Below, in pieces: positions 205 through 18,533 of a DNA stretch of 64,000 bases. Position numbers and translations under genes: made by a program. The notes below the pieces were generated by a model that saw only the letters and a list, made by a program, of their open reading frames with translations, searched no databases and was not told the origin of the DNA. The stretch is from an uncultured Cryomorphaceae bacterium (lineage in GTDB: Bacteria > Bacteroidota > Bacteroidia > Flavobacteriales_D > Crocinitomicaceae): contig CAJXDT010000008.1 in the NCBI GenBank assembly GCA_913052055.1, positions 539 to 64,538 on the forward strand. The letters are read 5' to 3'. Every line of letters starts with the position of its first letter. Position 1 is the stretch's first letter.

Positions 205-1296
205 ATGAAAAAGGTATTATTTATAGACAGAGATGGCACATTGGTTATTGAGCCGCCAGTGGACCTTCAACTCGACAGCTTGGAAAAACTAGAATTCTAT
301 CCTGGTGTTTTTCAATGGCTTTCGCGCATTGTACGTGAGCTCGATTATGAAATTGTGATGGTGACAAACCAAGACGGCTTGGGAACCAGCTCCTTTCCTG
401 AAGAAACTTTTTGGCCCCCTCAAAACAAGATCCTTGAAGCATTTACAAACGAAGGTGTTGATTTTGATGAAATATACATAGACAAAAGCTTCCCCGAGGA
501 CAATGCACCAACAAGAAAGCCAAGAACAGGTCTGTTGAACAAATATCTCTACGGAAATTATTGTTTGGAAGATTCCTTCGTCATAGGAGACCGTGCTTCT
601 GACATTGAGCTTGCCAAAAATTTAAATGCACAAGGGATTTTTATAGGCAATGAGAACATGCCCGACGCTGTTTTAAGCACTACCAATTGGCGTGAGATTT
701 ATCAATTCCTAAAATCAAATCCTAGGCGTGCAAAAAGGGTTCGGAAAACAAGCGAGACCGATATTGCTGTGGAAATAAATGTTGATGGAAACGGCCCATC
801 AATAATCTCAACAGGTCTTGGCTTCTTCGACCACATGCTGACACAAATCTCTAAACATGGATCGATGGAGCTTTCCATTGAAGTAAAGGGAGATCTTGAG
901 ATTGACGAGCACCACACCATAGAGGATGTTGCCATCACCCTCGGAGAAACCTTTGCCCAAGCCCTCGGCGCTAAGAAAGGAATACAGCGCTACGGGTTTT
1001 TATTACCTATGGATGACTGCTTGGCGCAAGTTGCCATTGATTTTGGGGGTCGACCGTGGTTGGTTTGGGACGCTGAATTTACTAGAGAAATGATTGGAGA
1101 TGTACCAACTGAAATGTTCATGCACTTCTTTAAGTCCTTCAGTGATGGAGCAAAATGTAATTTAAATATAAAGGCAGAAGGGAGCAATGAGCACCACAAA
1201 ATTGAATCGATTTTCAAATCGTTTGCAAAGGCAATAAAAATGGCCGTTGAGAAAACCAATAATTATTCAATCCCAAGCACAAAAGGAATACTATGA
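205..1296 (+). CDS. hisB: bifunctional histidinol-phosphatase / imidazoleglycerol-phosphate dehydratase
   Basis: N-terminal HAD motif 'FIDRDGTL' and 'VTNQDG'. C-terminal IGPD motifs '[14 protein letters not shown]' and 'NEHHKIES'. ATGA overlap with hisH. Confidence 0.9.
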
Positions 1297-1871
1297 TCGC
1301 AATTGTTAAATATAACGCTGGCAATATCAAGTCTGTTGAAAATGCACTACAAAGGCTCGGTTATCCTTGTGTGGTAACTGATGATGCACAAACACTTAAG
1401 GAAGCAGATAAAGTTATTTTTCCCGGTGTTGGAGCTGCCAAACCCGCCATGAAATATTTGCGTGAACGCAAATTGGACCAAGTCATTTTAAACCTTACCC
1501 AGCCCGTACTAGGAATTTGTTTAGGACTTCAGCTCATGTGCTCAGAAAGTGAGGAGGGTGCCACAAAATGCTTAGGTATTTTTAAAAATAAAGTACGCCG
1601 ATTTGAAGAAAAAGAGCTAGTACCGCACATGGGTTGGAACAGTATCAATAATTTGAAAGGCCCTCTATTTGAAGATATCAAAAACAATAAGGACACCTAT
1701 TTTGTACACAGCTATTATGCCGAACTCTCAGCGCAGACATCGGCCATCTGTTTATATGACATCCCATTCAGTGCCTCCTTACAGAAAGACAACTTTTACG
1801 CAACCCAATTCCACCCCGAAAAATCGGCGGGCCTTGGTGAAAAAATATTAAAAAACTTTTTAGCATTATGA
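1293..1871 (+). CDS. hisH: imidazole glycerol phosphate synthase, glutamine amidotransferase subunit
   Basis: Class-I GATase motifs 'GICLGLQLM' (catalytic Cys) and 'QFHPEKS'. 4-nt overlaps with both neighbours. Confidence 0.9.
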
Positions 1872-2581
1872 AAATCATTCCGGCAATAGATATCATAGAG
1901 GGCAGCTGTGTTCGACTCACGAAAGGAGATTACGCAACCAAAAAAATCTACAATAAAAACCCTTTAGAGGTCGCAAAAGAATTTGAGGCGAACGGTATAA
2001 AACACCTTCACCTCGTTGACCTTGATGGCGCCAAGTCAAAACGCATTGTGAATTATAAAATACTGGAGCAGATTGCAGTAAAAACAAAGCTCGAAATAGA
2101 CTTTGGTGGTGGGCTGAAATCAAATAAGGATCTAAAAATCGCTTTTGAATCAGGCGCCAATCAAATCACTGGAGGCAGTATTGCAGTTCAGAAACCCGAG
2201 CTCTTTAACTCCTGGATTCAGGACTATGGAGGAGAACGAATTATTTTAGGCGCTGACTGCCTGAATCGAAAGGTTGCCACAAATGGCTGGCAGCAAACCT
2301 CAGAAATAGATGTACTCAAGCTCATTCAAGAATATGAAAAGCGTGGTATTCGTTCAACCATTTGTACGGATATTTCAAAAGATGGCATGCTGTCTGGTCC
2401 GGCCTTTTCACTCTATGAAAACTTAATATCAAATTCCAATACGAAACTTATTGCGAGCGGTGGGATTTCAAGTATACAAGACCTCAAGGACCTCAAAGCA
2501 ATTGGCTGTGCAGGAGCAATTGTGGGCAAAGCAATCTATGAAGGAAAAGTAACACTTAAAGAACTGAAGAAATTATGTTAA
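1868..2581 (+). CDS. hisA: 1-(5-phosphoribosyl)-5-[(5-phosphoribosylamino)methylideneamino]imidazole-4-carboxamide isomerase
   Basis: '[15 protein letters not shown]', '[11 protein letters not shown]' and 'GKAIYEG' are typical of the HisA TIM barrel. Operon context supports it. Confidence 0.9.
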
Positions 2582-3333
2582 AGAAAAGAATTATTCCCTG
2601 CTTAGACATTCAAGACGGCAGGACTGTAAAAGGCATAAACTTTATCGGTATAAAGGATGCAGGAGACCCAATTGAGTTGGCGCAGAAATATGTTGAGGAA
2701 GGTGCAGATGAGCTGGTTTTCCTTGACATTGCTGCCACGATTGAAAAGAGGGAAACACTGCTTACACTTGTAAAAAACATCGCTGAAAAAATAGACATCC
2801 CTTTTACGGTAGGTGGCGGGATTCGTTCAGTCGAAGATGCAGCAAAGGTCATTGCCGCAGGCGCAGATAAGGTGTCTATAAATTCATCTGCTGTGAATCG
2901 ACCAGAATTAATTTCAGAAATAGCAAATCGTTTCGGTAGCCAATGTGTCGTTCTAGCCATTGACACGAAATATATTTCTGGTGCTTGGAAGGTATTTATT
3001 CAAGGCGGTCGAACACAAGTGCCACTAAATGCAATTGAATGGGCACAACTTGGTGCGGAGCTTGGTGCGGGAGAAATACTTCTGACCTCCATGAACAATG
3101 ATGGCACAAAAGAAGGCTTTGCCTTAAGCATTATAAAAGCACTTAGCGCGTCTGTGAATGTGCCAGTAATCGCATCAGGTGGCGCTGGGTCAATGAACGA
3201 TTTTAAAGAACTCTTCAGCAATACGAAAGCCACTGCAGGGTTAGCCGCAAGTATTTTTCACTACGGAGAAATCCCTATACCACAATTAAAAAATTATTTA
3301 AAAACCAATAACATTCCCATAAGATGCAAATAG
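2575..3333 (+). CDS. hisF: imidazole glycerol phosphate synthase, cyclase subunit
   Basis: '[16 protein letters not shown]', 'ELVFLDI', 'TVGGGIRS' and 'ASGGAGS' are canonical HisF motifs. Confidence 0.95.
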
Positions 3334-3920
3334 ATTTCAAAAAAGGTGATGGTCTCGTACCCGTCGTCATTCAAAACACCACTACCCTTCAAGTTTTAAT
3401 GCTTGGATATATGAACGAAGAAGCTTTTAAAAAGACTACAACAGAGCGGCTTGTTACTTTTTTTAGTAGAAGTAAAAACAGACTTTGGACGAAAGGAGAG
3501 TCTTCAAAAAATTACTTACGCGTTGACGAGATTCTCGTTGATTGCGATAAGGATACGGTTCTTATTAAAGCTACTCCTAATGGTCCGACTTGTCACACAG
3601 GAAGTACATCCTGTTTCAAGGAAGAAACAGACAAAGGGTTTATCTATGAATTAGAAAGAACCATTAATCAAAGAATTGATCAGGCAGATCCAGACTCTTA
3701 TACCAATACCCTTTTCAAACAAGGAATAAATAAGCTTGCCCAAAAAGTTGGTGAAGAAGCTGTGGAAGTAGTCATTGAGGCAAAAGACAACAATGAAAAG
3801 CTGTTCAAAAACGAGGTCGCTGACCTTCTTTACCACACTTTAATTCTAATGAAAGCAAAAGGCGTTGGGCTCAATGACATTGAGAAGGTACTTTCAAGTA
3901 GAAAAAATTCAAGTCGTTGA
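3324..3920 (+). CDS. hisIE: bifunctional phosphoribosyl-AMP cyclohydrolase / phosphoribosyl-ATP pyrophosphatase
   Basis: HisI part has 'PVVIQN...LMLGYMN' and the Zn-ligand cysteines 'DCDKD...CHTGSTSCF'. HisE part has 'LAQKVGEEAVEVVIEA' and 'EVADLLYHTLILM'. Confidence 0.9.
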   Translation: MQIDFKKGDGLVPVVIQNTTTLQVLMLGYMNEEAFKKTTTERLVTFFSRSKNRLWTKGESSKNYLRVDEILVDCDKDTVLIKATPNGPTCHTGSTSCFKEETDKGFIYELERTINQRIDQADPDSYTNTLFKQGINKLAQKVGEEAVEVVIEAKDNNEKLFKNEVADLLYHTLILMKAKGVGLNDIEKVLSSRKNSSR

Positions 3921-10111: not shown

Positions 10112-10192
10112 AAACATTCTTAATGCATCTGTGTTGTAATTAGCGATCTATGCATTATTTTTGCATACTAAATTCTTAAGCGTTAAAGTATT

Positions 10193-11311
10193 ATGACAAT
10201 ATACAATACAATAGTAGTTGGTTCAGGACCTGCAGGTATTGGAGTGGCCTCTCTTTTAAGCCAAGCTGGCAACGACTACATTGTTCTTGAGAAAAAACAA
10301 ATAGGGAATTCATTTATAGATTGGCCCAAGAATATGGAAATGATTACTCCATCTTTTCCAAGCAATGCTTTTGGCCAAATGGATTTAAATTCCATTTGCG
10401 AAGGTACCTCACCTGCATTTTCGTTTAACAAAGAGCACTTATTAGGCGACGAGTACGCTGAATACCTAGAGCTTGTTGCAAATTATTTTCAGATAAATAT
10501 CCAATCCAGCACTGAAGTTATTCATGTCAAAAAGATGCCAAATGGGTGGGTTGTTGAAACCAACCAAGGCGATTATTTTTCAAAATATTTGATTTGGGCT
10601 GCTGGTGAATTTCAAAATCCACAAATTAAAAATATAAAAGGTGCTGAGCATTGTATACATAGCTCATATATTCGGTATCCAGATCGGGTAGAAGGAGACG
10701 GTTTCGCAATCATTGGAGGATACGAAAGTGGGATTCAATTGGCATATGACCTCGTGAGCAATCAAAAAAATGTAACGCTCATAGACCCAAGCGAAATCGA
10801 TGATACGAGCACAAGTGACCCATCTCAGGTTTTGTCTCCTCATACTTTCAAAAAATACAAGAAAATTCAAAATTCTCCATTGTACAATGAAGTGACTGGG
10901 AAAGTCAATTCAGTGATTAAAAAAGAGGACGGGTATCATCTTGAGCTCGAAGATGAACAAGTAATTAAAACGGAGCGCATTCCAATATGTGCAACAGGGT
11001 TTTCGCTTGTCGATGAACCGATAAAAGAGCTCATTAGCTACAGGGAGGATGGTAGCCCAAAATTAACTGAAAAGGCTGATGAGTTTGATGGTCAAGAAAA
11101 CATGTATTTGACAGGACCTTCGGTACGACACGACAACCACATATTTTGTTTTATCTACAAATTTAGACAACGCTTCGGTGTAATAGTAGAAGATATTTTA
11201 AGAAAAGAAAAAGTCGATGAGGAACAGATCTCACTTTGCGTAGAAAAATGGAAATCCAATGGTATGTATTTGTCTGATTTGAGCTGTTGTGATGACGAAT
11301 GCGTTTGTTAG
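10193..11311 (+). CDS. FAD/NAD(P)-binding oxidoreductase (flavin monooxygenase/YpdA-like fold) with Cys-rich C-terminal tail
   Basis: Dinucleotide fold 'IVVGSGPAGIGVA', second Rossmann 'FAIIGGYESGIQLA', and 'CATGF'. The last 24 aa are 'CVEKWKSNGMYLSDLSCCDDECVC'. Confidence 0.7.
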   Translation: MTIYNTIVVGSGPAGIGVASLLSQAGNDYIVLEKKQIGNSFIDWPKNMEMITPSFPSNAFGQMDLNSICEGTSPAFSFNKEHLLGDEYAEYLELVANYFQINIQSSTEVIHVKKMPNGWVVETNQGDYFSKYLIWAAGEFQNPQIKNIKGAEHCIHSSYIRYPDRVEGDGFAIIGGYESGIQLAYDLVSNQKNVTLIDPSEIDDTSTSDPSQVLSPHTFKKYKKIQNSPLYNEVTGKVNSVIKKEDGYHLELEDEQVIKTERIPICATGFSLVDEPIKELISYREDGSPKLTEKADEFDGQENMYLTGPSVRHDNHIFCFIYKFRQRFGVIVEDILRKEKVDEEQISLCVEKWKSNGMYLSDLSCCDDECVC

Positions 11312-12462: not shown

Positions 12463-14142
12463 ATGAAAAATAAAAAATATAACCGAAAAGAGTTTATTTC
12501 TTTTTTGGGCAAGGTCAGTTTGGGTGTAGCCATCACTCCATCATTTTTAATGAGTTGCGGAAACAGCAACAGCTCAATCATCAGCGAAGGATTATCAATT
12601 GATGAAATTAATAAACTAAAAAAGCTCGTACTTAAAAGTCTCGTCGCTTCGGATAAAGATGATTTACTAATCACCAAAGGTCTTGATTACCATACCCTAA
12701 TCAAATGGAATGATAAGATCAGTGACGAGGATACTTTTGGATTCAATTGCGATTTTACCTGTTTCATCCCTTTTGATGAAAAACATCCTGAGGACGGCTT
12801 GCTATGGGTCAACCATGAATACGTGCACCCTCTTTTTGTTTCGAACTATGCCTTTGGTAATCCAAATGAAGAAAGAACCATTGAACAAGTTGACAAAGAA
12901 ATGTATAACGTTGGTGGCAGCATCGTCCGAATCCGTCAAGAAAACGGAAAATGGAAAATTGTCCATAATGACCCCCACAATCGAAGGATTACGGCCAAAA
13001 CACCGATTAGCCTCAATTGGGACACACCTATCAAGGAAAAAACAACTGTTATTGGTACACATAGTAATTGCTCAGGGGGGATTACACCATGGAAGACATT
13101 CTTGACTTGTGAGGAAAACTACGATCAGTTTTATGGGGAAACGGAGCATCTAAATGATGGGAGTACTTATCATAGACCAAGCGCTATGGGTTGGGAAAAT
13201 TTCTATAAATACCCACCTGAACACTATGGTTGGGTAGTTGAAATTGATCCAAAAAATGGTGCCATACAAAAGCACATTGCACTGGGAAGGTTTGCTCATG
13301 AATGTTGCACTTTATTTCAGCTAAAAGACAAGCGCGTTGTCGCGTATAGCGGAGATGATACAAATGACCAGCATTTATATAAATTCATTTCTTCCAAACC
13401 CAATTCATTAAAAGAGGGAACATTGTATGTTGCCGATACGAATAATGGTAAATGGATTCCTTTAGACTGGGAAAATCAGCCACTTCTAAAGAGCGCATTT
13501 AAAAATCAAACAGAGGTGCTCATTAGAGCAAGAGAAGCAGCAAAATTATTAGGCGCGACAGAATTAAACAGACCTGAAGATATTGAAATAGACCCTATCA
13601 CAGGAAGTGTTCTTGTCTCGCTAACCAATAATAAACCGAAAGGTGATTTTCATGGCTCTATCATGAAGATTGAAGAAGAAAATAATAAACATGATTCCTT
13701 GAGTTTTAACGCTTCTGTATATCTTGCGGGCGGGGGAGAAAGTGGGTTTTCATGCCCAGACAATTTGGCTTTCGACTTGTCTGGAAACCTATGGATGACT
13801 ACTGATATATCAGGAAGCGCCATGAACAAAGAAGAAGCGCCATATATGGATTTTAAAAACAATAGCTTGTTTGTAATTCCTAGAATCGGCGATGATGCAG
13901 GGAAAGTAATTCGTGTCGCCAATGCACCTCGGGATGCAGAGTTTACAGGGCCATGGTTTTCTCCAGATGGCAAGACCTTATTTCTTAGTGTACAGCATCC
14001 GGGTGAACAAACCACTGACCTAAAAAACCCAACCAGTCTTTGGCCTTTTGACAAAGACAACATTCCAAAACCATCGGTTGTGGCTATCACAGGTGACTTA
14101 ATTGAGAAAATGAACAATCTACATATGATTGAAAAACCTTAA
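12463..14142 (+). CDS. phoX: PhoX-family (DUF839) alkaline phosphatase, lipoprotein
   Basis: Beta-propeller PhoX-like motifs 'GGITPWKTFLTCEEN', 'NRPEDIEIDP' and 'EFTGPWFSPDGKTLFLSVQHPGE'. N-terminus has 'NRKEFISFLG' (Tat-like, RK instead of RR) followed by the lipobox 'LMSCG'. Confidence 0.8.
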   Translation: MKNKKYNRKEFISFLGKVSLGVAITPSFLMSCGNSNSSIISEGLSIDEINKLKKLVLKSLVASDKDDLLITKGLDYHTLIKWNDKISDEDTFGFNCDFTCFIPFDEKHPEDGLLWVNHEYVHPLFVSNYAFGNPNEERTIEQVDKEMYNVGGSIVRIRQENGKWKIVHNDPHNRRITAKTPISLNWDTPIKEKTTVIGTHSNCSGGITPWKTFLTCEENYDQFYGETEHLNDGSTYHRPSAMGWENFYKYPPEHYGWVVEIDPKNGAIQKHIALGRFAHECCTLFQLKDKRVVAYSGDDTNDQHLYKFISSKPNSLKEGTLYVADTNNGKWIPLDWENQPLLKSAFKNQTEVLIRAREAAKLLGATELNRPEDIEIDPITGSVLVSLTNNKPKGDFHGSIMKIEEENNKHDSLSFNASVYLAGGGESGFSCPDNLAFDLSGNLWMTTDISGSAMNKEEAPYMDFKNNSLFVIPRIGDDAGKVIRVANAPRDAEFTGPWFSPDGKTLFLSVQHPGEQTTDLKNPTSLWPFDKDNIPKPSVVAITGDLIEKMNNLHMIEKP

Positions 14143-14177: not shown

Positions 14178-15062
14178 ATGAAACATACAGAAAAAATGCT
14201 TCGCGATGATGCACTCAAAGGGAAAACCATTGTTGTTACCGGAGGAGGTAGTGGGCTGGGTAAGGCCATGTCACGTTACTTTTTAGAACTCGGAGCAAAA
14301 GTAGCCATCACCTCAAGGAACATAGATAAACTACAAAATACCGCAAAAGAGCTCGAGGCAGAAACAGGTGGGACCTGCTTGCCAGTTCAGTGTGACGTTC
14401 GGCATTATGATCAGGTAGAAAATGTTTTAGCAGAAGTGCTAAAGTCTTTTGGCCAGGTAGATGTCCTGCTCAATAATGCAGCCGGAAACTTTATATCTCC
14501 AACTGAACGCTTATCAGCAAATGCCTTTGACACAATTATCGATATTGTTCTGAAAGGGACTAAAAACTGTACCCTTGCATTTGGAAAACATTGGATCAAA
14601 AGCAAACAGGAAAGCGCAAAAGTGCTCAATATTGTAACAACCTATGCCTGGACCGGTTCGGGTTATGTTGTGCCAAGTGCAGCGGCGAAAGCCGGTGTTC
14701 TCGCCATGACAAGAAGCCTTGCTGTGGAATGGGCAAAATATGGAATGCAATTCAACGCAATTGCCCCAGGCCCCTTCCCTACTAAAGGAGCATGGGATAG
14801 ACTGCTTCCTGGAAACTTGAAAGAAAAATTTGATATGGCCAAAAAAGTACCTTTAAATAGAGTCGGCGAGCATCAAGAGCTGGCAAACTTAGCCGCATAT
14901 TTGGTATCAGACTTTTCCTCTTATATCAATGGAGAGGTTATTACCATTGATGGTGGAGAATGGCTAAAGGGAGCTGGGGAGTTTAATTTATTAGAAGACA
15001 TTCCGCAAGAAATGTGGGACCAACTAGAAGCCATGATTCGAGCGACAAAAAAGAATAAATAA
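14178..15062 (+). CDS. SDR-family oxidoreductase, 2,4-dienoyl-CoA reductase-like
   Basis: 'VVTGGGSGLGKAM' and 'NNAAGNF'. The 'SAAAKAG' active-site region resembles DECR/FadH-type SDRs. Confidence 0.8.
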   Translation: MKHTEKMLRDDALKGKTIVVTGGGSGLGKAMSRYFLELGAKVAITSRNIDKLQNTAKELEAETGGTCLPVQCDVRHYDQVENVLAEVLKSFGQVDVLLNNAAGNFISPTERLSANAFDTIIDIVLKGTKNCTLAFGKHWIKSKQESAKVLNIVTTYAWTGSGYVVPSAAAKAGVLAMTRSLAVEWAKYGMQFNAIAPGPFPTKGAWDRLLPGNLKEKFDMAKKVPLNRVGEHQELANLAAYLVSDFSSYINGEVITIDGGEWLKGAGEFNLLEDIPQEMWDQLEAMIRATKKNK

Positions 15063-15175
15063 ACGCGTTTTGATCTTTTAAACCATTTGGCGGCTTAGAG
15101 ATTTACCATGAATAAGGTATTTATCTCAGCTTTTTGTTTAAGTACTTTTGAATTAAATTAAAAGCACGTATCCCT

Positions 15176-15829
15176 ATGAAAGCTTATTCGATCTTTATAA
15201 TTCTTTCAGTACTTACAATCACAGGATGTTCTAAAGAAAATACTGGCGATAGTAACTATCGATTTGAATTCGATTTTGATTTAAATAACCATTATTTAAT
15301 TGAAAGTACGGGTGAACTTGTTGAAACAAATAGGGCTTATATTGATACCAACTATGAATGGATAAATAATTTTATTCACCTTAATGATGGAGTGATTGGA
15401 GACAGCTTAGTACTCGGATGTTGGGGGAATTGGAGTGGTTATATTGAAAACCCTAGCGCATCCGTAAAAATATGGTTCCCACAAACAGAACTTGCTGATG
15501 GAGTTTATCAATACGCAAGACCTGAAGATGTCAATGACTTCACAATTCATATGGAGAGAAATATGACCTGGGGCGAACATTCAAATGCGTGGGGTACAAT
15601 TGAAGGAACCAACACTATATTAAATTCAGATACTGTGGCTTCCTCGTTTACTATTGGTAACAATTTAGTAGTCGTGGAATATGCTGAAATAAAAATTGAG
15701 CATATCAACGCTACAAATTCCAAACTTCGTTATGTCATTGAAACAGTTAGCGGTGAACTGATTAAAGGCTCATACATTGGTTCTCTTGAGCGTTTTAAAT
15801 TGTGGACTCCAGAGGTTGATTGTGATTGA
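15176..15829 (+). CDS. lipoprotein, unknown function
   Basis: Lipoprotein signal 'IILSVLTITGCSKE'. I recognise no other motif. Confidence 0.5.
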   Translation: MKAYSIFIILSVLTITGCSKENTGDSNYRFEFDFDLNNHYLIESTGELVETNRAYIDTNYEWINNFIHLNDGVIGDSLVLGCWGNWSGYIENPSASVKIWFPQTELADGVYQYARPEDVNDFTIHMERNMTWGEHSNAWGTIEGTNTILNSDTVASSFTIGNNLVVVEYAEIKIEHINATNSKLRYVIETVSGELIKGSYIGSLERFKLWTPEVDCD

Positions 15830-15846
15830 GGTTAATGTTCCTAAGT

Positions 15847-16746
15847 TTAAATTGCCAAAATCTTATCAATAATCTTTTGCAACATAGAAGGATCACTTCC
15901 AGGACCAACAGTAATTAACTTTGGACCAGTCTGAGGAATTCCAAAAAAGGGCCGAATTGAAACGGTACCATCAGGAGTCCTTTCGAAATAAGTATAATGC
16001 TCCTCCTCCCCTATTTGTGTACAGCCCTTTACGCGAAGAATACTATTAGGAATTTCTTTACAGACTTTATAAATAAACTCAGTGCTCATTAATTTCGGTA
16101 AATCTGTTGAGCAGGAGGACCAGTGAGCTTTGTGGTGGTCTAGTTTTTTATGTGGCTGTTTTGATGGATCAAGTTTAGGAAGCAAGGATATATCGATTTC
16201 TTCCATATTCATTATGTCAGCTATCGGATTGATTGCTTTAATGGATCTTGATACAGCCTCAATTCTTTCTTTAGGTAAATCATCATAATGAGACAATACG
16301 ACAAGGGATGAAACCTGAATTTGATTTGCTTCGAGGTCGTTGTACTCACCTCGTTTTTGCCAATTCCGAACGTCTACAACAGAAACTTGTATAGGTGGTA
16401 AAAATCGTTGATCAAGACCAACCCCTAAAAACCCCATCAAAGCACATGCGTCCGATGTTCCATTTGCCTCTATGAGCGTGATTCCCTTTTCTCGCTCAGG
16501 AATTCTATTCACGTTATCCCGAAGTTCATTGATGCCGCTACAACAAATACAACTTCCATTCAAAGGCCAAACATTATTAGATTCCACTTGATCCACAAAT
16601 TGCTGAGCATCTAAGTATGCATTTTCATAATCATTGAGAATAAGAAAAGGACGCCAAGAATTATCCACATATGAGCTTACTAAATGCTTCAGCAGGGTTG
16701 TTTTTCCAGCACCTAAAAAACCTACAATTGTAATGATTGCTTCCAT
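15847..16746 (-). CDS. COG0523-family metallochaperone GTPase (CobW/ZigA/YeiR-like)
   Basis: Walker A 'GFLGAGKTTLLKHL', the diagnostic CxCC motif 'GSCICCSG', and a His-rich linker 'HKKLDHHKAHW' before the C-terminal CobW_C-like domain. Confidence 0.85.
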   Translation of the reverse strand: MEAIITIVGFLGAGKTTLLKHLVSSYVDNSWRPFLILNDYENAYLDAQQFVDQVESNNVWPLNGSCICCSGINELRDNVNRIPEREKGITLIEANGTSDACALMGFLGVGLDQRFLPPIQVSVVDVRNWQKRGEYNDLEANQIQVSSLVVLSHYDDLPKERIEAVSRSIKAINPIADIMNMEEIDISLLPKLDPSKQPHKKLDHHKAHWSSCSTDLPKLMSTEFIYKVCKEIPNSILRVKGCTQIGEEEHYTYFERTPDGTVSIRPFFGIPQTGPKLITVGPGSDPSMLQKIIDKILAI

Positions 16747-16965
16747 TATTTGTTCAAACGTTCAGTTTCAATTTAAGTTTGGAAACCTACCTAATGCCTA
16801 TATACTGCTTAAAGCTCTTTGAATAACCTAAAACATACATACCCTCTTTATTTCAATCTATTGACCAAAAGAAAGAGGGTGGATTTTTGTTGAATACTTC
16901 AGTTTTCTTAGTATCAGCCTGGCAAGCAGATCTAATTCAGACTTGTCTATACCTCAATGCCAAGA

Positions 16966-17427
16966 TTAAGGATTATATGGAAAAGAAGAATGGTGTAGGT
17001 CTATTTTTATCGAACCATTTACTACTTTATACCCAAAAGTGTACTCCACTTTGGCTTCATTTCCATCTAAATCAGTAAAGAAGTAATTCCCCATGGCGAT
17101 TGCACGGTTTTCTTCTAAAATAAATCCAGCGTTTTCAAACCTCACTTTTGTCCATGGCTGAATGGCAAAACCATTATCTTCAGAACATACACGGTCATCT
17201 CCGGCAATGAAATAAGATACAGCCTCTGCCTTGGATGGCCTAAATTGTTGTGATTTACACTTGGTCGGCTTAAAGAGAACTGGGCCTGCCTCAAAGGAAT
17301 AAAGTTTGTCTAAAAATTCAGAAGTATACGCTTCACATTCCGAACGACTATTCTTTAAAGAACCTATTTTTACAACACCCGCTCCCCACTCTTTTTGAGC
17401 TTCTAAAAGATCGTTTTCTGTTGTCAT
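16966..17427 (-). CDS. NTF2-like fold protein; candidate iota-class carbonic anhydrase (COG4337-like)
   Basis: About 153 aa from the ATG at 17427 (MTTENDLLEAQKEWG...). The ORF-track start at 17460 adds 11 residues encoded by very AT-rich sequence. No signal peptide. Motifs 'VLFKPT', 'YFIAGDD' and a C-terminal 'KIDLHHSSFP' matching the H-H-S-S signature I recall for iota-CAs. The assignment comes from memory of the family, not from a search. Confidence 0.5.
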   Translation of the reverse strand: MTTENDLLEAQKEWGAGVVKIGSLKNSRSECEAYTSEFLDKLYSFEAGPVLFKPTKCKSQQFRPSKAEAVSYFIAGDDRVCSEDNGFAIQPWTKVRFENAGFILEENRAIAMGNYFFTDLDGNEAKVEYTFGYKVVNGSIKIDLHHSSFPYNP

Positions 17428-17539
17428 TTTATAAAAATTTAAAATTAATATCGCTTTCATTTCTTTATCAAGAAATGAGAAATCAAATATAAAAAAGAAG
17501 GGGCATTAATGCAACCCAATTGTATGAGTGGATTTGTAC

Positions 17540-17556
17540 AACATTGTTTTATAACA
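17540..17556. promoter_or_regulatory. nested palindromes (AACA-t-TGTT and TGTT-ttat-AACA), candidate operator in a divergent promoter region
   Basis: The sequence tgtacAACAtTGTTttatAACAc lies in the 230-bp gap between the iota-CA candidate (-) and pirin (+). Only the symmetry is observed; the cognate regulator is unknown. Confidence 0.2.
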
Positions 17557-17657
17557 CTATATTTATTTGAGCATCAATAACACTAAATAAACCCACAAAT
17601 AAATTCATTTTTTGAACAATAATGGATTAGGGTTTTTATATTGGTTAACCAAAATAT

Positions 17658-18533
17658 ATGCTAATGAAAGTTCGTTCAGTAAAAACCATAGTAAGGGCGC
17701 AACGTGTAAATATGGGCGGGCATTTATTAGACCAGCCATTACCAATACATGGTATAGATGCAATTGATCCTTTTTTATTAATTCACCACTGGGACGAACC
17801 TTTGACGCCAGGAGGAAAACAAAGCGAACTTGGTGTAGGTCCTCATCCGCATCGCGGCTTTTCACCAGTAACTTTTATCTTTAAAGGGAGTGTTCGGCAC
17901 CAAGATTCTTTAGGTAATACTGCTGTTATTTCCTCAGGGGGAACTCAATGGATGCACGCTGGTAATGGAATTATCCATAGTGAACGTCCCGGAATAAAGT
18001 TAGTAAAGCAAGGGGGAGACCAAGAGTTTATTCAATTTTGGGTAAATACCCCAGCAAAACATAAAATGGAAGCGCCTTATTACCTTCCAATTTCAGCTGA
18101 TGAGACACCTAAAATCAAAAAAGAAAACGCAGAAATCAGTATTGTGGCGGGTAAATTCGAATCTAAAATAGGGCCAGCGAAAACGTACAGCCCTCAAACA
18201 TTACTTCGTGTTGAAGCTAAATTAGGTGCTAAACTCCAGCTTCCTATTCCGAATACATACAACACGCTACTTTATGTGTTAAACGGAAACCTTGTCATAG
18301 ATGGGCAAAAAGTAAAGACGAAAGACATGGTTTGGTTTGAAAACAATGGAGAATATATTGATTTAGAAACTACGGCACCCACTCGGTTTATTGTTTTATC
18401 CGGAGAGCCTATTGGAGAACCTGTTGCTTCTTATGGTCCGTTTGTCATGAACTCCCAAGAAGAGCTTCAGCAGGCAGTCAACGACTTTCACAATGGAAAC
18501 ATGGGAACACTTAAAGAAACATTTGAGTCCTAA
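17658..18533 (+). CDS. pirin-family protein
   Basis: Bicupin signature 'GVGPHPHRGFSPVTFIFKGSVRHQDSLGN' and a C-terminal 'GPFVMN...EL.QA..DF' region typical of pirins. Confidence 0.85.
   Translation: MLMKVRSVKTIVRAQRVNMGGHLLDQPLPIHGIDAIDPFLLIHHWDEPLTPGGKQSELGVGPHPHRGFSPVTFIFKGSVRHQDSLGNTAVISSGGTQWMHAGNGIIHSERPGIKLVKQGGDQEFIQFWVNTPAKHKMEAPYYLPISADETPKIKKENAEISIVAGKFESKIGPAKTYSPQTLLRVEAKLGAKLQLPIPNTYNTLLYVLNGNLVIDGQKVKTKDMVWFENNGEYIDLETTAPTRFIVLSGEPIGEPVASYGPFVMNSQEELQQAVNDFHNGNMGTLKETFES

Follow-up and report, generated by a model that had tools for sequence, protein, structure and literature searches.

Carbonic anhydrase (CA) is a textbook zinc enzyme, and surface seawater is poor in zinc. 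Known bacterial zinc-starvation regulons substitute CAs of the beta or gamma class, which still require a metal. The closest described arrangements are Zur islands known from Pseudomonas, Burkholderia and Cupriavidus (COG0523, FolE2, PyrC2, DksA2 and a gamma-class CA). There, a palindromic operator of the Fur-family type precedes a cluster of COG0523 and substitutes for zinc enzymes, CA included (PMC2770081, PMC10563805, PMC11672702). A 2024 review placed the Zur-linked CAs in the beta and gamma classes and asked for work on which metals they prefer (PMC11672702). In the literature, we found no paper linking iota-class CAs with COG0523, Zur or zinc limitation, and none on a Zur box of Bacteroidota. 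We describe here an iota-class CA homologue that lies next to a COG0523 GTPase gene and that, in many related marine Bacteroidota, sits in what looks like an island controlled by zinc starvation. This island would be a variation on the known zinc-sparing theme.

The stretch of Bacteroidota DNA analyzed here (the window) is 64 kb long. An ORF check of its minus strand (15847-17460) confirmed the two genes of the first-pass annotation, in place and with every motif quoted for them (Table 1). For the comparison with relatives, we tabulated 12 kb around each of the best 80 of 561 confirmed Bacteroidota CA loci; the closest relative, L001, has a CA that is 94% identical. Judged by their conservation, both genes of the window are real and under strong purifying selection, because the CA protein is 70–94% identical across 80 Bacteroidota genomes of different orders, forming a very tight clade, and the GTPase is 64–97% identical to many proteins of ~300 amino acids.

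Table 1 Features of the window discussed in the text.
Feature	Position	Strand	Details
Best palindrome copy, TTAATGCATCTGTGTTGTAATTA	10120..10142	.	18.9 bits by position weight matrix (PWM), top of window
Pyr_redox_3 flavoprotein gene	10193..11311	+	PF13738, E = 5.4e-82; first gene after the strong box
PhoX alkaline phosphatase gene	12463..14142	+	Pfam PhoX, E = 3.1e-101
Second ORF	15847..16746	-	299 aa; next gene downstream of the small ORF, same strand, gap of 219 nt
COG0523-family G3E GTPase gene, divergent short subfamily	15847..16746	-	299 aa; PF02492, GAGKTT, CICC
Hairpin ACCCUCUUU...AAAGAGGGU, then U-rich stretch	16841..16880	-	Predicted fold, in the gap between CA and GTPase genes
Small ORF	16966..17460	-	164 aa from first ATG, 153 aa from ATG 17427
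Iota-class (MICAH / COG4337-type) CA homologue gene	16966..17427	-	153 aa, predicted cytoplasmic; profile, PDB match, model, catalytic residues
Candidate CA promoter -7 element, TATATTTG	17484..17491	-	Fits TAnnTTTG
Candidate operator, degraded copy of TTAATGCAACnnnGTTGCATTAA	17506..17528	.	Centre 26 nt upstream of the -7 element

The small ORF contains the motifs 'VLFKPT', 'YFIAGDD' and 'KIDLHHSSFP'. The CA gene almost certainly starts at ATG 17427, because nearly all orthologues are 153–157 amino acids long and the upstream ATG is directly followed by TAG in L001. The first-pass annotation had assigned the protein to the iota class by its motifs, and profile and structure searches bear this out. 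The protein matches the NCBIfam model NF047901, 'metal-independent carbonic anhydrase', with E = 6.3e-32, though its 110.6 bits stay below the equivalog cut-off of 350 bits; by this NCBI criterion it is not an equivalog but a homologue from a distinct clade. Relative to the 205 positions of the model, the match starts at about position 50 and the N-terminal part is absent. The protein has no signal-like N-terminus and is therefore predicted to be cytoplasmic. The local copy of Pfam gave no match, which is no evidence against the family because PF27546 ('MICAH') is newer than that copy; this domain is precomputed on relatives 74–96% identical to the CA protein.

Among solved structures, the protein matches all2909 of Anabaena PCC 7120 (7c5v) with E = 2.3e-30 over its full length (residues 12-163 of the 164-aa ORF) and Bn86287 of Bigelowiella natans (7c5x) with E = 9.6e-79, all three domains of 7c5x being aligned. 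Identity to the solved iota-class CAs is about 35–39% over the full length. In the AlphaFold model (pLDDT 82.3, pTM 0.82), only the loop of residues 76-87 has low confidence. Foldseek placed 7c5v and 7c5x/y at ranks 1 to 5 with TM scores of 0.85–0.88 and E-values down to 1.9e-13, the metal-free 7c5v coming out on top (TM 0.87), and the next fold reached a TM score of only 0.66. The NTF2-like fold is thus common to all2909, Bn86287 and the window protein, as is the Thr/Tyr/His/Ser set in the KPT, (S/A)YF and HHSS motifs. In the sequence alignment, Thr55, Tyr72, His145 and Ser147 correspond to Thr106, Tyr124, His197 and Ser199 of all2909, the importance of which was shown by mutagenesis (PMC8132391), and all four are invariant in 82 orthologue sequences. 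By sequence and predicted fold, the small gene therefore encodes a genuine relative of the CAs that work without metal, from a separate, tight Bacteroidota clade, and we infer that the protein is active and metal-free.

The neighboring GTPase matches the Pfam cobW domain (PF02492) with E = 4.9e-26 over residues 4-179. With ZigA, ZagA and YciC it shares a G3E P-loop domain, CxCC and a linker that contains His, and the alignment of its subfamily shows no variation in the Walker A motif GAGKTT or in CICC. The first-pass annotation had placed it in the zinc-linked ZigA/ZagA-type branch of COG0523, which did not hold. The ZigA model NF038288 covers residues 7-99 only, with 51 bits where the cut-off is 600 bits, whereas a long COG0523 protein beside the CA gene in relatives reaches 561 bits. 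The window protein is ~100 residues shorter than ZigA, ZagA and YciC. Pfam gave no match to CobW_C (PF07683), although a stretch L-R-V-K-G-C has some likeness to it. At the NKxD position lies S-H-Y-D (V-L-S-H-Y-D), with L-(T/S)-H and an invariant His in the subfamily; YjiA has TKTD here, so the motif is loose within the COG0523 family. The annotated His-rich linker 'HKKLDHHKAHW' is present, but the subfamily keeps merely a short D-H-x-K-x-H-W core and no long His tract. The best PDB match is YjiA of Escherichia coli (1nij, 4ixm; E = 1.9e-10), which is similar in length and has the same CxCC metal site, but is only ~17–25% identical. The structural model of the GTPase is too poor (pLDDT 63) for a comparison of the C-terminal domain, and its Foldseek alignment to YjiA is full-length but has a TM score of 0.29.

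A 23 bp palindrome, TTAATGCAACnnnGTTGCATTAA, was discovered in divergent regions beside a Fur-family gene. The 80 loci hold 99 sites of this palindrome (box), upstream of the CA gene, a MerC gene, ZigA-type COG0523, the Fur-family gene, a DUF1826 gene, a TonB-dependent receptor gene and ABC transporter genes. In L046 a box lies directly upstream of FolE, and elsewhere FolE and PhoX occur inside boxed gene runs. In 39 of the 80 loci the CA gene has a box that reaches 14 bits or more, directly ahead of it in 15 and at the head of its same-strand run in 24. Cultured relatives with a strong box are found, for example, in Tenacibaculum, Kordia, Winogradskyella, Polaribacter and Aquimarina. No box was found in 34 loci, several of which pair the CA gene with a SulP transporter gene. 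By its content, the set of genes preceded by the palindrome is a Zur-like regulon, and we infer that the Fur-family protein responds to zinc and has the box as its operator.

As in the Zur islands of the other genera, COG0523 and CA are clustered in these relatives behind a palindrome of the Fur-family type. The CA differs, being gamma-class and metal-promiscuous there but iota-class and predicted to be metal-free here. FolE is of type I with its zinc ligands retained, in place of FolE2, and both the box sequence and the host phylum are different. PhoX, a MerC-like protein and F1 are additional members. F1, a 164-aa protein that recurs in the CA islands, had no match in Pfam, NCBIfam or PDB and only two homologues in a word-index search.

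The expectation that CA and COG0523 genes would be neighbors across relatives was borne out in part. A COG0523 GTPase gene lies within 6 kb of the CA gene in 25 of the 80 loci, and true ZigA-type genes stand beside it in about 20, which supports a link between the CA family and COG0523 and other zinc-limitation genes. Direct adjacency to the short GTPase, however, is lineage-specific. It was found in L086, L087, L089 and L090 and in five of the 80 loci, recurring also in L034 and L075, and is absent from L001, whose alignment with the window downstream of the CA gene is too diverged to tell gain of the GTPase from loss. Boxes lie near the short GTPase gene in L087 and L088 but not in L081, L082 and L084, and at other genome sites its neighbors are varied and unrelated. 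Thus, unlike ZigA, ZagA and YciC, the short subfamily has no consistent placement behind a Zur-type operator.

We then compared the region upstream of the CA gene in the window with that of relatives. The -7 promoter consensus of Bacteroidetes is TAnnTTTG. The element TATATTTG is the sole match in the 230 nt that precede the CA gene, and L001, L087 and L089 conserve the surrounding block, so it is likely the CA promoter; a simple sigma-70 scan was uninformative for this region. The first-pass annotation had proposed to look for a shared Zur-type box: a candidate box is present at the CA promoter, and none was found in the gap ahead of the GTPase gene. With 11.6 bits, the candidate operator is the second-best PWM site in the 64-kb window, where chance would give 0.37 sites with 10 bits or more, but its score is almost the lowest among the training sites (minimum 11.3 bits, median 28.5 bits). 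The identical position scores 22.8 bits in L087, 11.9 bits in L001 and 2.4 bits in L089, where the box has decayed. The window therefore appears to have kept the promoter-operator layout of its relatives with a degraded operator that has lost part of its left half. Occurrences of TGCAACnnnGTTGCA with up to three mismatches show no excess over chance in the window (27 seen, 29 expected), so only the PWM score and the position are informative.

The gap between CA and GTPase genes contains neither a palindrome box nor a TAnnTTTG element, and no F1 remnant was found in it. Its hairpin retains pairing in L089 with one compensatory change and may be a partial terminator. A simple terminator scan did not call it, Rfam returned just one chance miRNA match for positions 15000-18500 with the hairpin unmatched, and the fold of the whole gap was no more stable than shuffled sequences (z = -0.7). 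In L087 and L086, the order CA, F1, short COG0523 is packed tightly, with operon-like gaps of 11 and 21 nt. Since no promoter is recognizable for the window GTPase gene, read-through from the CA promoter probably accounts for at least part of its transcription, and the two genes are probably co-transcribed to that extent.

At lower coordinates of the window, the strong box that precedes the flavoprotein gene has its centre 25 nt upstream of a -7-like element, TATTTTTG, and this box is identical in L001. In L086, L089 and L090, the interval between the flavoprotein gene and the next gene contains boxes of 18.9–23.6 bits, as read from the gene coordinates. A tblastn search of the 64-kb window with the island families (Fur-type regulator, MerC, FolE, F1, SulP and others) found PhoX and the short GTPase only, and neither a regulator gene nor a ZigA-type gene lies within the window. 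Because the strong box is retained, the regulator is probably still present in the genome.

The reading that we favor, and hold to be fairly probable, is that the CA family belongs to a Fur-family, most likely Zur, regulon behind TTAATGCAACnnnGTTGCATTAA, so that a shortage of zinc turns on production of the metal-free CA. The repressor would sit on the palindrome, which overlaps the promoter, and leave the DNA under zinc scarcity. Derepression would then yield the zinc-free CA together with the ZigA-type and short COG0523 GTPases, FolE and PhoX, as well as the MerC-like membrane protein and the outer-membrane and ABC transport genes. In the cytoplasm, the CA would hydrate CO2 by its Thr/Tyr/His/Ser pocket without a metal, and the supply of bicarbonate for carboxylations would become independent of zinc enzymes. 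In the organism of the window, zinc-responsive expression is plausible, but because the left half of the operator is partly lost, control is perhaps weak or expression near constitutive. A wider reading may well hold, although we stop short of calling it probable. According to it, the metal-free iota-class CA is a core member of an undescribed Zur-type regulon of marine Bacteroidota with TTAATGCAACnnnGTTGCATTAA as operator, and the first CA replacement to work without any metal instead of with another one. One flavobacterial lineage would have combined CA and F1 with a COG0523 gene of a new, short subfamily in a small operon, and in open-ocean lineages like that of the window the operator would be decaying, fitting a shift from zinc-regulated to near-constitutive expression.

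The most serious alternative, which we consider unlikely, is that the pairing in this genome is historical, with the CA as a near-constitutive housekeeping supplier of bicarbonate and a short COG0523 protein unrelated to zinc or CA. The lack of the GTPase gene beside the CA gene of L001, the degraded operator of the window, the conserved hairpin in the gap and the boxless loci, several with a SulP partner instead, all fit such a history. So do the varied, unboxed surroundings of the short GTPase elsewhere, for example a MoCF_biosynth gene that adjoins it in L084, L085, L025 and L071 and lies three genes off in L088. Against it, the adjacency recurs in L086, L087, L089, L090, L034 and L075, in the first two of them with operon-like packing, and the GTPase gene has no promoter motif of its own. 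Moreover, the weak box lies exactly at the orthologous operator position, and the retained box of the flavoprotein gene points to a regulator that is probably present. The palindrome might instead serve a Fur-family sensor of iron, manganese or peroxide, the island then being another metal-stress regulon. The regulator, a protein of 126 aa, indeed matches the Fur models (E = 7e-7) better than the Zur model (E = 5e-3), with PerR also among its best NCBIfam matches and Zur the weakest; for this reason, its metal was deduced solely from the content of the regulon. PhoX, which uses iron and calcium, also provides an iron connection. Yet induction of an iron-dependent PhoX would be unexpected for an iron-starvation regulon, and the boxed genes, including the ZigA-type COG0523 of 561 bits, DUF1826, the TonB receptor and FolE in boxed runs, are the classic Zur set as described by Haas et al. 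2009 (PMC2770081), which makes a non-zinc sensor improbable.

Two further alternatives concern the proteins themselves. That the COG0523 GTPase inserts a metal, such as manganese, into a metal-dependent CA would suit the tight gene order in L086 and L087 and the manganese preference reported for one iota-class CA, the diatom enzyme (PMC11672702). We regard this as very improbable, given that the structurally closest enzymes are metal-free, resistant to chelation and inhibited by added zinc (PMC8132391), that the active-site residues are the metal-free set and that most CA loci lack the short GTPase. It is scarcely credible that the small protein is no CA, and another NTF2-like enzyme or a 'phosphoribosyl-AMP cyclohydrolase' instead. 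The latter (HisI) name stands on some NCBI and UniRef entries and the NF047901 score is below the equivalog cut-off, but the protein has no similarity to the HisIE encoded in the window itself and no PRA-CH match in Pfam, so this label was rejected. Its 38% identity to solved iota-class CAs with all four catalytic residues, and the far lower scores of other NTF2-like folds, likewise argue for a CA.

If zinc does control the iota-class CA in Bacteroidota, this would be a clean example of a metal-free enzyme replacing a zinc enzyme, and with the palindrome there would be a first operator motif by which zinc regulons of this major marine phylum could be predicted. Zinc supply would then be tied to the bicarbonate-dependent carbon metabolism of abundant heterotrophs, and the F1 family and the short COG0523 subfamily would be candidate parts of the zinc response.

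Some island members and neighbors deserve mention. A SulP anion transporter gene is near the CA gene in 12 of the 80 loci and adjacent to it in 10 of these. PhoX is likewise present in 12 of the 80 CA loci, and in most of them it follows the CA gene and F1 in the same orientation. The translated flavoprotein of the window ends in a Cys-rich tail, LSCCDDECVC.

The two same-strand open reading frames that the first-pass annotation had paired as a possible zinc-sparing module, a candidate iota-class carbonic anhydrase (CA) and a COG0523 zinc-chaperone GTPase, were confirmed with unchanged coordinates and with every quoted motif (VLFKPT, YFIAGDD and KIDLHHSSFP in the CA; GAGKTT, CICC and HKKLDHHKAHW in the GTPase). 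The 153-aa form is likely the correct CA product, because orthologues are nearly all 153–157 aa long and the upstream ATG in the closest relative (locus L001) is immediately met by TAG.

Features of the window and of related Bacteroidota loci (L numbers)
Feature	Position	Strand	Remarks
CA	16966..17460	-	164 aa from first ATG; 153 aa from ATG 17427
Short COG0523 GTPase	15847..16746	-	299 aa; next gene downstream of CA; gap 219 nt
Lipoprotein-like gene	15176-15829		217 aa
Hairpin	16841-16880		CA/GTPase gap; 9-bp stem, then U-rich stretch
Box (candidate Zur-type palindrome)	17506-17528		11.6 bits; ahead of CA gene
Box	10120-10142		18.9 bits, window's best; ahead of flavoprotein gene
Pyr_redox_3 flavoprotein gene	10193-11311		Cys-rich tail LSCCDDECVC at end; PhoX follows, same strand
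PhoX alkaline phosphatase gene	12463-14142
Five-ORF run	205-3920	+	last gene HisIE, 3324-3920
Double palindrome	L040:4867-4927, L063:4869-4929, L074:4873-4933
F1	L042:2520-3017, L086:553-1047, L087:4485-4979
PhoX near CA	L017:6979-8655
SulP next to CA	L011:4379-5950, L062:4072-5976
Type I FolE	L003:9035-9700, L040:5252-5998
MoCF_biosynth near short COG0523	L084:6976-7563, L085:1131-1679, L088:5912-6445, L025, L071

The local copy of Pfam gave no match for the CA protein, and the newer Pfam family PF27546 (MICAH) is carried by relatives at 74–96% identity. The NCBIfam model NF047901 (metal-independent carbonic anhydrase) matched with E = 6.3e-32 and 110.6 bits, short of the equivalog cut-off of 350 bits. 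Among sequences of solved structures, the alignment of the CA with the iota-CA of Anabaena (7c5v) was full-length (E = 2.3e-30), and in the Bigelowiella enzyme (7c5x, E = 9.6e-79) each domain of the three was matched. For its AlphaFold model (pLDDT 82.3, pTM 0.82) the five best PDB matches were 7c5v and 7c5x/y, at TM 0.85–0.88, the best other fold reaching 0.66. Both the proposed family and, on this predicted model, the NTF2-like fold are borne out; the enzyme family itself is known, and the gene adds a new member to it. In the mutagenesis of Hirakawa et al., Thr106 and Tyr124 were necessary and His197 and Ser199 important, and the iota-CAs studied were metal-free and still active after chelation (PMC8132391). 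These residues align with Thr55, Tyr72, His145 and Ser147 in the 153-aa form, and none of the four varies among 82 sequences. The CA is predicted to be cytoplasmic, because the NF047901 match begins at position 50 of the 205 in the model and the N-terminus runs directly into a helix.

Several NCBI and UniRef entries of the CA family (P0034, P0053, P0063, P0083) are named phosphoribosyl-AMP cyclohydrolase. A HisI identity was rejected, as similarity to the true HisIE of the window is absent; since the family lacks sequence similarity to HisI, the name looks like a propagated mis-annotation. The five tightly packed ORFs ending with this bifunctional HisIE look like a histidine biosynthesis operon, judged from the last gene.

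From a genome scan we took the best 80 of 561 confirmed loci, all from Bacteroidota with CA orthologues, clustered their neighbouring ORFs into families and annotated these. COG0523 genes number only a few per genome of several megabases, and one would fall within 6 kb by chance in about 1% of cases, a rough estimate. Tabulated across relatives, they lie within this distance of the iota-CA gene in 25/80 loci, and the association is therefore real. In about 20 of these 25 loci there is an orthologue of the ZigA type, which scores 561 bits against the ZigA model; five hold the short type, always with the ZigA type alongside. Other neighbours are a MerC-like membrane protein (29/80), a Fur-family regulator (22/80), type I FolE (20/80), an ABC transporter ATPase (18/80, permease genes in fewer), a SulP transporter and PhoX (12/80 each) and, less commonly, MoCF_biosynth, DUF1826 and a TonB-dependent receptor. 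The commonest, at 37/80 loci and usually directly downstream of the CA gene, is F1, an unknown protein of ~164 aa with an N-terminal CP(S/T)DCLE, which matched nothing in Pfam, NCBIfam or PDB and is absent from the window.

FolE in these islands keeps its Cys/His/Cys zinc ligands and often adjoins the ZigA-type COG0523 gene, whereas proteobacterial Zur islands hold the zinc-independent FolE2 instead. PhoX mostly follows directly after CA and F1 on the same strand; as PhoX does not use zinc, its presence may reflect another zinc-sparing swap within the island.

In the divergent regions beside the Fur-family gene, a palindrome with the consensus TTAATGCAACnnnGTTGCATTAA occurs once or twice. Counting copies with at most two core mismatches, 99 occur in the 80 loci, mostly intergenic and upstream of the genes for CA, MerC, ZigA-type COG0523, the Fur-family regulator, DUF1826, the TonB receptor and ABC components; in L046 the box directly precedes FolE, and elsewhere FolE and PhoX lie inside boxed gene runs. 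Many sites overlap TATATTTG, which we take to be the Bacteroidetes -7 promoter consensus. Between divergent Fur-family and MerC-like genes the palindrome is often doubled, ~38 nt apart, again overlapping this element. At a threshold of 14 bits, the box, a candidate Zur-type operator, was present at 39/80 loci, directly ahead of the CA gene in 15 and heading its same-strand gene run in 24, but there was none at 34/80, and 7/80 end at a contig edge. In palindrome-free loci the CA gene often directly adjoins a SulP-family anion transporter gene, a hint that the same enzyme also handles bicarbonate in a separate setting. The association with SulP in these further loci fits a CO2/bicarbonate role; pairing of SulP with CA is well known.

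Because the boxed gene set matches the classic Zur set of proteobacteria (PMC2770081), we infer that the regulator's metal is zinc; its own profile matches are weak and prefer Fur over Zur. We favour the reading that, in marine Bacteroidota, the CA family is the metal-free component of a zinc-starvation regulon, by which bicarbonate supply would continue once zinc enzymes fail. A literature search returned no paper that connects iota-CA to COG0523, to Zur or to zinc limitation, and no description of a Bacteroidota Zur box or of this palindrome, which might be used to predict operators in the phylum. In a Zur-type cluster of Burkholderia cenocepacia the CA is described only as 'usually zinc-dependent' (PMC10563805). 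The regulon link is a new form of the known zinc-sparing theme.

Within the window, the PWM scan gave two sites above noise, against a null expectation of 0.37 per 64 kb at 10 bits or more. When loci were anchored on the -7 element, the CA-proximal box lay exactly 26 nt upstream of it in the window, L001, L087 and L089, scoring 11.6, 11.9, 22.8 and 2.4 bits, respectively. Because of this common spacing we regard the window site as an orthologous candidate operator, its left half apparently eroded in some lineages. The stronger site has the same geometry (25 nt) and an identical sequence in L001, and L086, L089 and L090 have comparable boxes of 18.9–23.6 bits beside the flavoprotein gene; this lineage therefore probably retains the Fur-family regulator, whose gene was not found within the 64-kb window. 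The window layout appears ancestral, with a weakened candidate operator. Regulation, co-transcription and CA activity are all putative.

Adjacency of CA and GTPase is conserved in part. The nearest GTPase relatives, L086 and L087, read pirin(-), CA, F1, short COG0523, with F1 wedged in by gaps of 11 and 21 nt, and L087 shares the fumC-nudix-MscS-pirin flank with the window; L089 and L090 are arranged as in the window, pirin(-), CA, a ~200-nt gap and short COG0523. L001, with a 94% identical CA, lacks the GTPase, and in Kordia, Aquimarina and one other genome the short GTPase lies elsewhere, without a box. The lipoprotein-like and GTPase genes are both missing in L001 (compared at L001:6460-6670), and L086, L089 and L090 carry both, which makes the pair a presence/absence block of ~1.7 kb. 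The CA/GTPase gap of the window is 75% identical to that of L089 over 156 nt and contains no trace of F1, no box and no -7 motif; the pairing of its hairpin, unmatched in Rfam, is kept in L089 by one compensatory T-A to A-T change.

The module proposed in the first-pass annotation is partly supported: the CA family stands, but the ZigA-type identity of the window GTPase does not, at 51 bits against a cut-off of 600. Pfam found a cobW domain (E = 4.9e-26) and no CobW_C, the best solved relative is YjiA, and the structural model is too poor to judge the C-terminal domain. The GTPase belongs to a well-conserved subfamily of ~300 aa from marine Bacteroidota (64–97% identity) with invariant P-loop, GSCICCSG, IEANGT and linker core D-H-x-K-x-H-W. 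In place of NKxD the subfamily has L-(T/S)-H, in which the His never varies (residues 150–156 of the window protein), so nucleotide preference may differ from that of other family members. A zinc role for this type is putative. A MogA-like MoCF_biosynth gene recurs near it, adjoining in L084, L085, L025 and L071 and three genes away in L088, which hints at a role unrelated to CA.
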